DNA from: Sulfitobacter sp.
Lineage (GTDB): Bacteria; Pseudomonadota; Alphaproteobacteria; Rhodobacterales; Rhodobacteraceae
Assembly: GCA_051252035.1 (NCBI GenBank)
Contig: JBPOFE010000001.1
Location: forward strand, 7,694-71,693
DNA: 64,000 nt
Reading direction: 5' to 3'
The position numbers and the translations under genes are program-made. A model generated the notes under the pieces. The model had not been told where the DNA came from and made no database searches. It worked only from the letters and a program-made list of their open reading frames with translations. Positions 43,265 through 47,819 of the stretch are shown piece after piece (positions within the stretch are counted from its first letter, which is position 1; each line of letters opens with the position of its first letter).

Positions 43265-43660
43265 ATGGCCTTGAAAGTATCAGCCGCCCAGATGGTTGCG
43301 GACGCCCGCGCCCGGATCGAGGAAATCGAAACAGCCGTCGGAATTGCAATGGTGGATGACCCATCTATTCAGATCGTCGACCTGCGCGACCCACGTGAAC
43401 GCGCACGCAGTGGCTTTATTCCCGGCAGTTTCCATTGTCCGCGCGGTATGCTGGAATTCTGGGTTGACCCCGACAGTCCCTATTTCAAAGATGTGTTTGC
43501 GCAGGATAAGAGATTTGTCTTTCACTGCGCCTCCGGCTGGCGCTCCGCCATTTCGGTGGCCACATTGCAAGACATGGGCTTTGACGCGGCACATTTGAAA
43601 GACGGGTTTGGCGGCTGGGCAAAGGCCGGTGGGCCAATCGAAAAGGATGCGCCGAGGTAA
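43265..43660 (+). CDS. Rhodanese-like domain protein
   Basis: VDLRDPRE, GSFHCPRG, HCASGWRS, LKDGFGGW. Confidence 0.92.
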   Translation: MALKVSAAQMVADARARIEEIETAVGIAMVDDPSIQIVDLRDPRERARSGFIPGSFHCPRGMLEFWVDPDSPYFKDVFAQDKRFVFHCASGWRSAISVATLQDMGFDAAHLKDGFGGWAKAGGPIEKDAPR

Positions 43661-43672
43661 GGTTTCGTTAAC
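43657..43672 (+). promoter_or_regulatory. CtrA-like box (1 mismatch)
   Basis: GTAA-GGTTTCG-TTAAC, about 20 bp upstream of the sRNA promoter. Confidence 0.4.
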
Positions 43673-43690
43673 CATACCGTACGGTGAATA

Positions 43691-43719
43691 ATTGCAATTT
43701 GGCGCGATTTGAGCTATAT
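43691..43719 (+). promoter_or_regulatory. Sigma70-type promoter of candidate sRNA
   Basis: ATTGCA-N17-CTATAT versus the rhizobial RpoD consensus CTTGAC-N17-CTATAT. Confidence 0.6.
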
Positions 43720-43725
43720 CTAAGG

Positions 43726-43806
43726 CATCGGAAGGGAAAATCTTTCAATAGATCATCTCTAAGAACGACGCCGCAGAGGTCTAGCTCTGCGGGGTCACTC
43801 TTTTTC
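43726..43806 (+). ncRNA. Candidate ~80-nt sRNA (putative antitoxin RNA)
   Basis: Bounded by a promoter and a terminator; no plausible + strand CDS; 5' end approximate. Confidence 0.5.
43767..43805. terminator. Hairpin shared by convergent sRNA and peptide transcripts
   Basis: GAC-G-CCGCAGAG-gtctag-CTCTGCGG-G-GTC then ACTCTTTTT on +; followed by GTTCTT on -. Confidence 0.75.
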
Positions 43807-43812
43807 AGGGAA

Positions 43813-43896
43813 TTACACCCAGAGCCGGATGATCGTCACAACCAGCGTTGCCGCCGCGATGATGACCATCCAATTTCGGAAGGTTGAATCATCCAA
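43813..43896 (-). CDS. 27-aa single-TM peptide MDDSTFRNWMVIIAAATLVVTIIRLWV (type I toxin-like)
   Basis: GAGGAGGTG SD at 43911-43903, 6 nt before TTG at 43896; TAA at 43815-43813; hydrophobic core. Confidence 0.7.
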   Translation of the reverse strand: MDDSTFRNWMVIIAAATLVVTIIRLWV

Positions 43897-43973
43897 TTCA
43901 ATCACCTCCTCACACCGCGAAGCGTCGCGGGTGAAGTCAAATTAGATTTGAAATGTTCGGATATCGTTAATCA

Positions 43974-44321
43974 TCAGGGACGCACCGGATATCGACCACC
44001 ATCCTCGGTCAACAACACCAAACGCCCATGGCTATGCACAAATATGTCACATCGCTGACGTCCGTTGGTAAATGTGACACAGACCTCGCCGTCGGGTTTG
44101 ATATCAAAGTGCCCAAATGCCGTCGCCCCACTTTCATAGGAATAGCTATAAGCGCCGCCGACCGAGTATCTTGACTGACCACCCTCATAAAACCTCAGCA
44201 CACGACCCGCCGTCAGCGCGACAACCTGCTCTCGTGCCAACACAGTATCCCCCTCAAGCCGTGCGAAACCATCCGCAAAAACGCAGGTCGGCAGCAGGAT
44301 TAAAGCCAATAAAAGTCGCAT
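43974..44321 (-). CDS. Hypothetical secreted protein
   Basis: Signal peptide MRLLLALILLPTCVFA; directly downstream of smc. Confidence 0.75.
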   Translation of the reverse strand: MRLLLALILLPTCVFADGFARLEGDTVLAREQVVALTAGRVLRFYEGGQSRYSVGGAYSYSYESGATAFGHFDIKPDGEVCVTFTNGRQRCDIFVHSHGRLVLLTEDGGRYPVRP

Positions 44322-44363: not shown

Positions 44364-47300
44364 TCACGCGACCAGTGTTTCGGCGGCTTTCAGATCAACG
44401 GAAACCAATTGACTCACACCCTGCTCGGCCATGGTCACCCCAAACAACCGATCCATCCGCGCCATCGTCACCGCATGGTGCGTGATGATCAAAAACCGCG
44501 TATCAGTCTGGCGACACATCTCGTCGAGCAGATCACAAAACCGCGTCACGTTGGCATCATCCAAAGGCGCATCCACCTCATCCAACACACAGATTGGCGC
44601 CGGGTTGGCGAGGAACACTGCAAAGATCAACGCCATCGCTGTCAACGTCTGCTCCCCCCCACTCAGCAAGCTGAGCGTGCTCAATTTCTTGCCGGGTGGT
44701 TGGCACATGATTTCCAAACCTGCCTCAAGCGGATCATCGGATTCGACCATCACCAGATTGGCCTCACCACCACCAAACAGATGTGTAAAGAGCAATGAGA
44801 AATTGGAATTCACTTGCTCAAATGCCGTCAACAAGCGCTCCCGCCCCTCTCGGTTTAGGCTTGCAATACCGCTGCGTAGTGCCTTGATTGCCTCTTCCAG
44901 ATCAGCCTTTTCGGTGGTCAGATTATCATGTTCTTCCTGTACGTCCTTCGCGTCTTCTTCGGCGCGCAGGTTCACCGCCCCAAGCGCGTCACGCTGACGC
45001 TTCAGACGGTTCACATCGGCCTCTAGTGCATCCGCCCCGGGCATCTGATCGGGATTCACATCCAATGCTGTCAGCAATTGATTTGGCGTGACCTGCTGGT
45101 CTTCGGCAATCCGCTCTGCCGCCGCTGCAACAGTCTCTTTTGCGGCCTCTGCACGGGCCTCTGATCGCGCGCGGGCTTCGCGAGCCTCTGATGCCTGCCG
45201 CTCTGCATCACGCTCGGTCAACGTCGCCTCACGCAACGTACTCTCGCCAACCGACAGATTGTCTGCCGCCTCTGCACGCCGGGCTTCGGCTGCCCCAATG
45301 GCATCGCTCAACTCATCGCGCTTGGCGGCGATCTCGGCTGGTGCAGCGCTTGCTTCTTTCAGCTCTGCCTCTGATGTGGCTTTGCGCTCGACCAGCTCCG
45401 CAGTACGCTTTTCCGCTGTTTCCAAGCGGTGCCGCCAGCCACTGATTTCCTTTGTGACTTCTTGCGACCGTTTGGTTCGCGCCTCACCTTCACGACGTAA
45501 TTCATCGTGAGCAGACCGCCGCGACATCATGGTAATCCGCGCGGCCTCAACGGTCATACGGATATCGTCGACGCTGGCCCGCGCCTCCGTCAGATCGCCA
45601 AGATCGGCCAGCGCTCGTTCTGCTTCAAGCACGCGGCCGCGCGCCGCCATCGCCTCGTCTTCATGGCGTTTTACCGCCAAACCAAGACTCTCCAATCGAC
45701 CCTCTGCCAAATTGCGATCCGCCTCTGCACGGCTCAAGGCACGGCCGGCATCCGCAACCATACGGTCCGCATCTCGGCGGGCCTCGCGCGCGCGTTTGTC
45801 AGCCTCTGATTGTTCCGCCAATGTCCGCGTCAGGGTTTCATGCGCTGACCTTGCCCCCTCCGCCCGCTGGCTGGCCTGCTCAAGCGATTGTTTGAGAACT
45901 TCCAGACGGTTCAACTGCTGCAAACGCAAAGCCGCCGCCGATGGCGCATCTTCGGCCCATGCCCGAAAGCCATCCCACCGCCACAAATCACCTTCAGGCG
46001 ATACCAAGCGTTGCCCCGGCAGAAGCTGATGTTGCAGGCGCGGACCATCATCCGGGTCAACCAGCCCGATCTGCCCCATGCGTCGTATCAAGACATCTGG
46101 CACCGACACATGTTGCGTCAGTGGTGTGACGCCTGCCGGCAACGGTTGTGGCATCTCATAGCCCGTCAAAACCGCCCAGCCAGATGGCCCATCTGCCTCA
46201 ACCTGTGGCGCGCGCAGATCATCTGCCAGCGCGGCCCCCAGCGCCTTTTCAAAGCCATGCTCAACCTGCAAACGGTCCAATATCTGGCCACCCTCAGCGG
46301 TATCGCGTTCCACCAATTTGGCCAGCGCACCCGCCTCGGCCCGCAACGCATTCATCTCGCCTTCGGCCTCTGACCGTTCGGCGCGCGCGTCCGCTTCTCG
46401 TGCTTGCGTTTCGGCGCGCGAAGTCTCTGCGTTCAACAGTGCAGTATCGGCTGCCTCTGCCGCCGCAACCGCTGTTGCTTCTGCGGTCTGGGCATCGGCA
46501 AAATCCACGCCCGCTTTCTCAAGTGCTGCCCGACTCTGCGCCACAGCTTCTTGTGCCTTTAACGCCTCAGCCTCGGACTTGTCTTGCGTTTTACGACTGT
46601 CCTCCAACAACCGCTCCGCCGATCCATGCCGGGCGATCAACCGCGCCACGTCCTCGGTCTGTTGTGATAGATCACCTTCGCGGGCCTGCAACACCGCCGC
46701 CGCTTCTCGCGCGGCTTCGGACGCAGCTTCTAACGCGGTTCCATGGCCTTCACCTGCCTTGGCAAGCTCACGGGCTTCCCACTCAAGCCGTTCGATGGTT
46801 TCACCAGCGTCTTTGTTCAACCCACCTTCACGCTCAATGTCCCGTGCCAGTTGCGCGATCCGCCCGGTCAATGTTTCAATCGTCGCCAACGCACGCGCTT
46901 CCTGATCACTCAGGGTGTCACGCTGAACCGCCAACCGCTGCAATACCGCTGCTGCAATCGCTTCTTCCTCACGCAGCGCAGGCAACGCATCTTCGGCCAC
47001 CTGCCGCGCCTTCGCCGTCACCTGAACCACACCTTGCGCCTGTGCCGCAGCAGTCACACGGGCACGCAGTTCTTCATCCGCCTTGGAACGGGCATCATCA
47101 GCCTCTCGCCAACGCCGATAAAGCAACATACCTTCGGTTTTGCGCAGGCCATCACCGATTTCGCGATACCGCGCCGCCTGACGCGCCTGGCGCGCCAATT
47201 GTGCCAATTGCGCGGCCAGTTGTTCGATCACATCGTCAACACGCGCCAAATTCACCTCTGCCGCGTTCAGCTTTAACTCTGCCTCATGGCGGCGTTGATA

Positions 47301-47819
47301 GAGCCCCGAAATCCCTGCGGCTTCTTCCAGAATACGACGGCGGTTCTTGGGCTTGGCATTGATTAACTCGGCGATCTGGCCCTGTCGCACCAATGCGGGG
47401 CTGTGCGCACCGGTGGACGCATCGGCGAACAGCATCTGCACATCGCGCGCGCGCACGTCTTTACCTGCGGCCTTATAAGCGCTGCCGGCATCGCGGGTGA
47501 TCCGGCGCACAATCTCAAGCGTATCTGTGTCGTTGAAACCCGCCGGGGCCAACCGCTCTGTATTATCAATATGCAATGCTACTTCGGCAAAGTTGCGCGC
47601 GGGCCGGGTTGCAGCCCCGGCAAAAATCACATCTTCCATCCCACCACCGCGCATCGCCGTGGGGCGGTTTTCACCCATGACCCAGCGTAGCGCCTCAAGC
47701 AGATTGGATTTGCCACAGCCATTCGGCCCCACAACGCCAGTCAGACCATCAGCGATGATCAGGTCAGTTGGGTCCACAAAGCTTTTAAAGCCTGTCAGTC
47801 TGAGTTTGGAAAAGCGCAA
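44364..47819 (-). CDS. smc: Chromosome segregation protein SMC
   Basis: GPNGCGKSN Walker A, coiled coils, hinge, LSGGE signature, LDEVDAPLD. Confidence 0.98.
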   Translation of the reverse strand: MRFSKLRLTGFKSFVDPTDLIIADGLTGVVGPNGCGKSNLLEALRWVMGENRPTAMRGGGMEDVIFAGAATRPARNFAEVALHIDNTERLAPAGFNDTDTLEIVRRITRDAGSAYKAAGKDVRARDVQMLFADASTGAHSPALVRQGQIAELINAKPKNRRRILEEAAGISGLYQRRHEAELKLNAAEVNLARVDDVIEQLAAQLAQLARQARQAARYREIGDGLRKTEGMLLYRRWREADDARSKADEELRARVTAAAQAQGVVQVTAKARQVAEDALPALREEEAIAAAVLQRLAVQRDTLSDQEARALATIETLTGRIAQLARDIEREGGLNKDAGETIERLEWEARELAKAGEGHGTALEAASEAAREAAAVLQAREGDLSQQTEDVARLIARHGSAERLLEDSRKTQDKSEAEALKAQEAVAQSRAALEKAGVDFADAQTAEATAVAAAEAADTALLNAETSRAETQAREADARAERSEAEGEMNALRAEAGALAKLVERDTAEGGQILDRLQVEHGFEKALGAALADDLRAPQVEADGPSGWAVLTGYEMPQPLPAGVTPLTQHVSVPDVLIRRMGQIGLVDPDDGPRLQHQLLPGQRLVSPEGDLWRWDGFRAWAEDAPSAAALRLQQLNRLEVLKQSLEQASQRAEGARSAHETLTRTLAEQSEADKRAREARRDADRMVADAGRALSRAEADRNLAEGRLESLGLAVKRHEDEAMAARGRVLEAERALADLGDLTEARASVDDIRMTVEAARITMMSRRSAHDELRREGEARTKRSQEVTKEISGWRHRLETAEKRTAELVERKATSEAELKEASAAPAEIAAKRDELSDAIGAAEARRAEAADNLSVGESTLREATLTERDAERQASEAREARARSEARAEAAKETVAAAAERIAEDQQVTPNQLLTALDVNPDQMPGADALEADVNRLKRQRDALGAVNLRAEEDAKDVQEEHDNLTTEKADLEEAIKALRSGIASLNREGRERLLTAFEQVNSNFSLLFTHLFGGGEANLVMVESDDPLEAGLEIMCQPPGKKLSTLSLLSGGEQTLTAMALIFAVFLANPAPICVLDEVDAPLDDANVTRFCDLLDEMCRQTDTRFLIITHHAVTMARMDRLFGVTMAEQGVSQLVSVDLKAAETLVA

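Follow-up and report, generated by a model that had tools for sequence, protein, structure and literature searches.

A candidate par-type type I toxin-antitoxin-like module beside smc in Sulfitobacter and other Rhodobacteraceae

Two convergent units in a short spacer

A 313-bp spacer (43661-43973) in the 64,000-nucleotide stretch of Sulfitobacter DNA analysed here (the window) holds two convergent units, one on each strand. The minus strand carries a short open reading frame (ORF; 43813-43896) that starts with TTG at 43896 and specifies a 27-aa peptide, MDDSTFRNWMVIIAAATLVVTIIRLWV; directly 5′ of it is an extended Shine-Dalgarno (SD) box, GAGGAGGTGAT, at 43901-43911. The plus strand carries a putative promoter (43692-43719) for a predicted small RNA (sRNA) of about 80 nt (about 43726-43806) with no conserved ORF, and both units run into a single terminator hairpin. 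A first-pass annotation of the window had already pointed to the ORF with its strong SD, to the plus-strand promoter and terminator, to an RNA with no coding sequence at about 43726-43806 and to the convergence of both units on one hairpin, and comparison with relatives bears these points out as features of the sequence. The two units together, here termed the module, are best read as a new family, in a lineage new to it, of an already known kind of system, and the comparative evidence for such a reading is unusually strong.

The relatives were gathered in several ways. A DNA search finds the region in four genomes of the same genus at ~73% identity, with the ORF kept there as a peptide. A hidden Markov model (HMM) of the peptide finds it in 11 of 113 Sulfitobacter species, one copy per genome; laboratory isolates among the carriers include Sulfitobacter sp. 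EhC04, S. aestuariivivens TSTF-M16 and S. sediminis MJW-29. The module is present in ~22 of 400 sampled genera of the same GTDB family (Rhodobacteraceae); two of the matches listed in the latter survey are false and lie inside long ORFs. Nothing credible came from an HMM search of 400 genomes of other alphaproteobacterial families. A scan of 185,579 species genomes for the terminator motif added Psychromarinibacter and several metagenome-assembled genomes (MAGs) of Rhodobacterales, and the total collected is 38 modules, to which the counts below refer unless another number is given.

The ORF is intact in all 38, with a product of 27-32 aa that is exactly 29 aa in 33 of them, and the sole length change within its helix is an in-frame 9-nt duplication. 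The peptide consensus, M-x-E-x-x-F/Y-R-K-W-M-(hydrophobic x13)-I-R-L-W-I-G-x, has an 18-residue hydrophobic core and is predicted to be a single-transmembrane (TM) peptide. Hydrophobic residues are exchanged for hydrophobic ones while the charged and aromatic anchor residues are kept. Read in frame, the ORF has a ratio of nonsynonymous to synonymous changes (pN/pS) of 0.47-0.51; three other frames give 1.0-2.1, and one antisense frame has a value similar to that of the peptide frame. Comparative analysis thus places the peptide ORF under coding constraint. Of the Sulfitobacter copies, the one in the window deviates most; its peptide ends 2 aa sooner, at an earlier TAA (43813-43815).

The SD of the module is very strong, and that such a box is complementary to the 3′ end of 16S rRNA is well established. 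The pattern GG(A/G/C/T)(G/C)G(T/C)GA is found in every module, with 8-11 nt complementary to the 16S 3′ end at ideal spacing throughout; in the window the GGAGG core is 8 nt from the TTG. An alternative in-frame GTG at 43905 in the window would give a 30-aa peptide. At the aligned start position, 25 modules have CTG, nine have TTG, four have GTG and none has ATG.

This lack of ATG, with CTG so frequent, suits the idea of an untranslated minus-strand RNA, in which case the two transcripts would be a convergent non-coding pair (for example an sRNA and its sponge) and the ORF incidental. A pN/pS of ~0.5 that is only moderate, with one antisense frame much like it, and the near-total failure of gene callers to predict the ORF point the same way. 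Such a pair is nevertheless very improbable, as it leaves unaccounted for a frame that is never closed and whose only indel keeps it, the replacement of hydrophobic residues by their like around conserved anchors, an SD at ideal spacing in front of every copy, and the high pN/pS of the other frames.

Annotation overlooks the family entirely, since just two records, both labelled ‘hypothetical protein’, resemble the peptide among 1.84 billion representative proteins. The peptide of the window itself is missing from that collection. One NCBI entry, MBM3615934.1 from an alphaproteobacterial MAG, is a 96-aa ‘hypothetical protein’ whose first part, MIELDENRYRKWMVILAAAALILAIIRLWIGA, is a peptide typical of the module and whose reading frame continues past it, which reflects either a lost stop codon or a wrong gene call.

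A repeat antisense to the initiation region

The ~35 nt next after the terminator, as read on the minus strand, form an imperfect direct repeat (DR2, 43766-43727) of the region in which translation of the peptide would begin. The first copy (DR1) begins at GGTGA within the SD box, takes in the start codon and ends near codon 8; in the window the translation initiation region that is the predicted sRNA target is 43876-43909, which covers the SD core, the spacer and the coding sequence from the start codon to codon 7. Since DR2 repeats DR1, a plus-strand RNA that crosses DR2 is antisense to the initiation region without overlapping it. The antisense segment of the predicted sRNA, identified by RNAduplex and by covariation, is 43728-43760. 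The possibility that DR2 is the start of a second small ORF was considered and rejected, as the frame downstream of it is not kept beyond the repeat.

The repeat pair is present in 38/38 modules and always has the form of two complementary blocks with a non-matching stretch between them. Each repeat follows its partner. The summed local-alignment score of cognate DR1/DR2 pairs is 631, compared with 340.7 +/- 15.6 for permuted partners (z 18.6; none of 20,000 permutations as high), and a sum over just the 11 Sulfitobacter modules gives 184, with 108 +/- 10.8 after permutation (none of 100,000 as high). DR2 tracks even substitutions in codon 7 that change the amino acid from R to W, Q or S. In the tandem modules of one MAG, and in the two copies from Psychromarinibacter, each repeat fits its own partner and not that of its paralog. 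In DNA, the repeat match of the window is the lowest of the Sulfitobacter set; in RNA it is rescued by G.U pairs.

The energies of the predicted duplexes agree with the alignments. The mean is -38.3 kcal/mol for cognate duplexes and -23.5 for non-cognate ones, and each cognate duplex has a z of between -4.5 and -7.9 relative to dinucleotide shuffles. With RNAduplex, the duplex of the window comes to -36.8 kcal/mol, where shuffles give -18.8 +/- 3.3. Four helices are predicted in it: sRNA 43751-43760 with the SD box (43909-43900), 43744-43749 with the start codon (43897-43892), 43739-43742 with 43890-43887, and 43728-43735 with codons 5-7 (43883-43876). Across the 17 intermolecular pairs (646 cells), 85% are standard pairs, a value that leans high as the pairing blocks were picked by best complementarity; shuffled partners, a control unaffected by that choice, give 61.3 +/- 1.3%, and slid registers 29-39%. 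Compensatory double changes occur in 14 of the 17 pairs.

Where DR1 and DR2 disagree, the mismatches favour, by 42 to 21 (p = 0.011), transitions that leave a G.U pair in the sense of a minus-strand mRNA and a plus-strand sRNA. Selection on RNA pairing predicts such a bias and gene conversion between DNA repeats does not. Co-evolution of the repeat with the initiation region, as revealed by comparative analysis, is what is expected for selected RNA-RNA pairing, and on this covariation it is highly probable that an sRNA from the plus strand would pair with the initiation region and repress translation.

A promoter-like pair recurs in the modules, with the consensus TTTACA or TTGCAA, 16-17 nt and CTATAT. 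In the window it comprises a −35 TTGCAA (43692-43697), 16 nt and a −10 CTATAT (43714-43719), the same site that had been noted earlier as ATTGCA-N17-CTATAT. A scan with the E. coli sigma-70 consensus calls neither promoter of the module, and the case for the sRNA promoter therefore rests on conservation and on likeness to the alphaproteobacterial consensus CTTGAC-N17-CTATAT. In ~30 of the modules the −10 ends 3-11 nt (modally 8-9) ahead of the first base complementary to the mRNA, which puts the predicted sRNA 5′ end where complementarity begins. For the 11 same-genus modules, an sRNA of 79-84 nt is predicted. In the window the sRNA is predicted to consist of the antisense segment, the terminator hairpin and a U-tract, and to fold (-32 kcal/mol, z -4.7) into a small 5′ hairpin and the terminator.

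The terminator (43767-43796) has a 12-bp stem (43767-43778 with 43785-43796) and a 6-nt loop. It is flanked by an A-tract and, opposite that, by a T-tract, which lets it stop transcription in both directions. Eight of the 12 stem pairs show compensatory changes (26 modules), and its plus-strand T-tract is better conserved than the peptide. The genome of the window contains a single such terminator. The copy in the window has one G.G mismatch in the stem, and its T-tract on the mRNA side, CGTCGTTCTT, is weak.

Could the repeat be no more than a decaying partial duplication of the 5′ end of the peptide gene, kept alike by gene conversion, with the promoter motif there by chance and no sRNA made? 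Tandem duplication of the unit does occur, and the E. coli-type scan finds no promoter in the region. Yet a non-functional 35-nt repeat would not last across ~20 genera while tracking its partner, the G.U-compatible asymmetry of the mismatches is strand-specific, the promoter-like pair recurs with constant spacing to the first complementary base, and the plus-strand T-tract is conserved beyond the peptide itself. An explanation without an sRNA is, on these grounds, scarcely credible.

The predicted peptide mRNA is ~177 nt (43758-43934, minus strand, both ends by prediction) and folds at -79.3 kcal/mol (z -5.9). Near its 5′ end is a conserved leader hairpin, CCGCGA-CGCT-TCGCGG (43930-43915), which in relatives has 7 bp, is 98.7% paired and shows compensatory changes in four of the seven pairs; its G.U pairs are legal only in minus-strand RNA. 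Covariation thus extends over the repeats, the leader hairpin and the terminator, and comparative analysis identifies the last two as RNA structures.

The earlier suggestion that the leader hairpin occludes the SD stands only in part, because the hairpin is beside the SD and the partners of the SD vary. GGAGG is not part of the conserved hairpin, whose end is immediately 5′ of the SD. It can be extended in the window (43911-43934), where the local fold stretches it over GAGG; in the fold of the full-length mRNA of the window, the SD pairs instead with codons 5-6. The part that holds is that the SD is mostly predicted to be paired: this is so in 37 of the 38 modules, with different partners, and the mean paired probability of the SD core is 0.81 against 0.66 for the body of the ORF (p = 4e-6). 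A conserved anti-SD farther upstream, in the stretch from the TTAAC box to the leader hairpin, was sought and rejected, the longest complementary run being 6.7 against 6.3 +/- 1.3 in shuffles.

Upstream of the peptide mRNA, whose transcription start is predicted near 43934, the putative promoter region (43937-43973, minus strand) has a TTAAC box at 43970-43966 and the motif TCTAATTTGAC at 43947-43937. A palindrome noted earlier at this place, TCAAAT-cta-ATTTGA (43937-43951), does not survive comparison, since it is not kept as a palindrome in relatives and only an CTCTAATTTGAC-like motif recurs. The TTAAC box (palindromic GTTAAC), by contrast, is at −60/−61 from the SD in 19 modules and at −50 in nine (28/38), positions one helical turn apart. 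TTAAC is also present on the sRNA side in 15/38 modules. In the window the box there is TTAACCAT, with a palindromic GTTAAC core (43668-43675, plus strand), just past the stop codon of the adjacent rhodanese gene and upstream of the sRNA promoter; TTAACCAT has four matches in the 64 kb, against 1.2 expected. The GTTAAC and TTAACCAT boxes resemble half-sites for CtrA.

A proposed par-like circuit from unrelated parts

The module would work as follows. The minus strand would give an mRNA of ~177 nt with a stabilising 5′ hairpin, a very strong but mostly paired SD, a weak non-AUG start and the coding sequence of a 27-29-aa single-TM peptide, while the plus strand would give a convergent sRNA of ~80 nt from a near-consensus promoter. 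As one bidirectional terminator would be common to both RNAs, their 3′ hairpins are proposed to be fully complementary. The 5′ 35 nt of the sRNA would be an imperfect antisense of the SD, the start codon and the first ~8 codons, in two blocks like DRa and DRb of par. Binding of the sRNA would block ribosome loading and leave the peptide untranslated; when the sRNA is absent, the peptide would be made, insert in the inner membrane and cause growth arrest. We infer both transcripts and their ends, repression as the outcome of binding, membrane insertion and toxicity.

The par locus (fst / RNA I-RNA II) of Enterococcus faecalis pAD1, with its homologues on chromosomes (Fst/RNAII family), is the closest counterpart in design. 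The SD of its toxin mRNA is hidden by an intramolecular 5′ stem-loop, and a helix farther upstream shields the 5′ end. Its anatomy, as reviewed by Weaver (PMC7472228), comprises convergent promoters, a shared bidirectional terminator, DRa and DRb, which are direct repeats, and a structured 5′ end of the toxin mRNA. The likeness noted in the first-pass annotation is strengthened by the co-evolving repeats of all 38 modules. As in par, the promoters (here deduced from conserved motifs) converge on one shared bidirectional intrinsic terminator, the 3′ hairpins are complementary, and blocks of direct repeats read in opposite directions cover the toxin initiation region outside the overlap. In both, for the module by prediction, the mRNA has a structured 5′ end and an SD that is mostly paired, the product is a tiny single-TM peptide with a charged N-terminus, and a chromosomal copy can be found wedged between conserved genes, parEF0409 being the example for par.

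The differences are as clear. Systems that converge at their 3′ ends and interact outside the overlap, Fst/RNAII and SprA1/SprA1as, are all Gram-positive (T1TAdb paper, PMC8594479). This organisation is listed there for Gram-positive families only, whereas the host of the module is a Gram-negative alphaproteobacterium. The start codon of the module is never AUG and its leader hairpin adjoins the SD instead of containing it; plasmid copies were not found. That the peptide is not Fst, as stated earlier, is upheld: it has no detectable homology to Fst, gives zero matches to Fst/Ldr models, lacks PXXXG, and ends 1-3 residues past R-L-W with no highly charged C-terminal tail. Of features that recall the Fst/Ldr superfamily, it has only a [T/S/M]-L-x-x-[A/T/G] pattern and the R-L-W motif. 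As the peptide is not an Fst/Ldr homologue by the tests run, the module is filed as working like par and not as a member of its family.

A second relevant comparison is with SprA1/SprA1as (PepA1) of Staphylococcus aureus, in which, as proposed for the module, the antisense RNA overlaps the 3′ end of the mRNA and acts on the toxin ribosome-binding site through a 5′ domain outside the overlap (PMC8594479). That system has unrelated peptide and RNA sequences, a Gram-positive host and a location in a pathogenicity island, and the complementarity in the module comes instead from co-evolving two-block direct repeats in the manner of par.

Enterobacterial type I loci (ldr/rdl, tisB/istR-1, zor/orz, shoB/ohsC, dinQ/agrB, ibs/sib) share with the module small hydrophobic peptides, conserved chromosomal sites and a narrow range (PMC5367252). 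A further likeness, which for the module depends on predicted repression, is a dedicated sRNA that blocks translation, often in tandem copies that are cognate-specific. Their antisense RNAs are 5′ of the mRNA or fully inside it, however, while that of the module is 3′-convergent with a shared terminator (PMC8594479), and the module has no sequence similarity to any of these families.

The peptide had no meaningful match in Pfam, in NCBIfam or among the anti-phage defence models of PADLOC, the last of which gave none at all; below threshold there were only TM peptides with no relation to it, YtcA and LH1-alpha among them. Rfam 15 gave one match, to the DnaX frameshift element and below threshold (15 bits, E 2.8), at 43765-43824 on the minus strand, judged to be due to chance as it stems from an A-run and the terminator hairpin just past the stop codon. 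The earlier remark that no described family of such a kind is known in Rhodobacterales agrees with Rfam and with the searchable literature (TA, or toxin-antitoxin, systems of type I in Rhodobacter, Roseobacter and alphaproteobacteria; peptide motifs), in which no description of the module family was found.

A fixed site, a patchy presence and the role of the peptide

Type I toxins are hydrophobic peptides of fewer than 60 aa made from short, structured mRNAs, a description that the peptide and its predicted mRNA fit; such toxins act when made in the absence of an antisense RNA that decays faster than the mRNA it pairs with. By analogy, the peptide would be a toxin in the TA sense, and the hallmarks that suggest it are its tiny size and hydrophobicity, weak starts, a strong SD that is sequestered, a cognate antisense RNA, orthogonal tandem paralogs and patchiness. 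The last is seen within the genus. In a close same-genus relative (G067, locus L075), the stop codon of the 115-aa ORF that borders the spacer is followed by that of the rhodanese gene within ~12 nt, with no trace of the module, so that a ~300-bp module is a clean difference of presence and absence. In a weakly resolved tree of an smc segment, one supported clade has two carriers and the non-carrier G067, and the best tree requires 5-6 changes of state. Patchy presence within a genus together with clean absence in a relative is like the population pattern of TA systems.

The unit that duplicates in tandem is ~299 bp, from one GTTAAC box to the next. Paralogous copies, which the first-pass annotation had suggested looking for, do exist, as tandem paralogs in one MAG and as two copies in Psychromarinibacter; the genome of the window, on the other hand, has a single copy. 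The module has been duplicated as a whole, with repeat pairs that are orthogonal, in L039 (4255-4760) and, probably also in tandem, in L040 and L048 (Psychromarinibacter sediminicola C21-152), and one copy of a tandem set carries an in-frame AIV duplication in the helix. What first looked like two unlinked copies in Psychromarinibacter was rejected as such: both are at contig ends, one adjoining smc and the other mltB, and they are therefore probably a tandem pair broken by assembly.

On balance the module is rather probably a chromosomal par-type type I toxin-antitoxin-like system. Several observations weigh against it. The gene for smc, that for a lytic transglycosylase (mltB) or both are within 1.5 kb in 34/37 loci, which is one fixed chromosomal site; plasmid copies were found neither in protein nor in DNA searches, viral-contig copies were not found in the terminator-motif scan, and most genomes, that of the window included, have a single copy. 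A fixed site, a single copy and absence from plasmids and viral contigs are less like a mobile addiction element and are compatible with a housekeeping small protein. None of the 36 members scanned matched a model of a type I toxin, Fst and Ldr included, at E <= 1. The start is ambiguous, as all 25 modules with CTG (for example L006, L007, L009 and L012) have a GTG in frame inside the SD box GGAGGTGA; in the six modules where the SD-box GTG is out of frame, the aligned start is TTG or GTG. Lastly, when six type I toxins predicted by a comparable bioinformatic screen in Microcystis were expressed in E. coli, only two were toxic (PMC12390103). Confidence in the full TA reading is held at a modest level because the fixed, non-mobile location pulls against the toxin hallmarks.

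The same RNA logic could instead set the dose of a physiological small membrane protein that is not toxic, for example a modulator of the envelope or of the cell cycle. The smc-mltB position, fixed across ~20 genera, the lack of plasmid and viral copies and the single copy in most genomes would all suit it, as would the very constant length of 29 aa (33/38) with conserved F/Y-R-K-W-M and I-R-L-W, and TTAAC boxes whose fixed distance suggests promoters that are regulated and not constitutive. A core function is hard to reconcile, however, with a module kept in just ~5-10% of genera or species and cleanly missing from a close relative, and non-AUG starts, a sequestered SD, a cognate antisense RNA and orthogonal tandem paralogs are hallmarks of type I TA systems (PMC7472228, PMC8594479). 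A non-toxic peptide is the main rival reading, to be taken seriously if on present evidence less likely than a toxin.

A bolder form of the idea makes the module an anciently inherited, locus-fixed switch for the cell cycle or envelope that is not selfish. CtrA-like boxes, set at constant distances upstream of the two promoters, would couple synthesis of peptide and sRNA to the CtrA cycle, the peptide, with its gene beside those for smc and a lytic transglycosylase, would be a membrane checkpoint effector for segregation, division or wall remodelling, and the par-type circuit would have arisen by convergence in a Gram-negative lineage. This we regard as speculative and improbable.

If the type I TA reading is true, it would add a family in Alphaproteobacteria, and in abundant marine roseobacters, to a class whose families are known from few lineages and each have a narrow range, for reasons of biology or of search bias, which is an open point (PMC5367252, PMC12390103). 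It would also mean that the design of par, with its convergent RNAs, common terminator and distal direct repeats, exists outside Gram-positives in unrelated parts. The 38 natural variants with matched repeats are a ready series of compensatory mutations for the specificity of RNA-RNA recognition, and the tandem paralogs a natural test of orthogonality. Both the peptide gene and the predicted sRNA gene have gone unannotated.

The spacer is bordered on one side by a gene for a rhodanese-domain protein (plus strand, Pfam PF00581), whose stop codon ends at 43660, and on the other by the 115-aa ORF (minus strand, 43974-44321) and then smc (minus strand, 44364-47819); smc and the peptide gene, which is the downstream one of the two, have the same orientation. 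The product of the 115-aa ORF had no match in Pfam, NCBIfam or PADLOC. It looks secreted, with an N-terminus like a signal peptide, MRLLLALILLPTCVFA, and several Rhodobacteraceae, genomes free of the module included, have the ORF too, placed after smc and before either the module or mltB.

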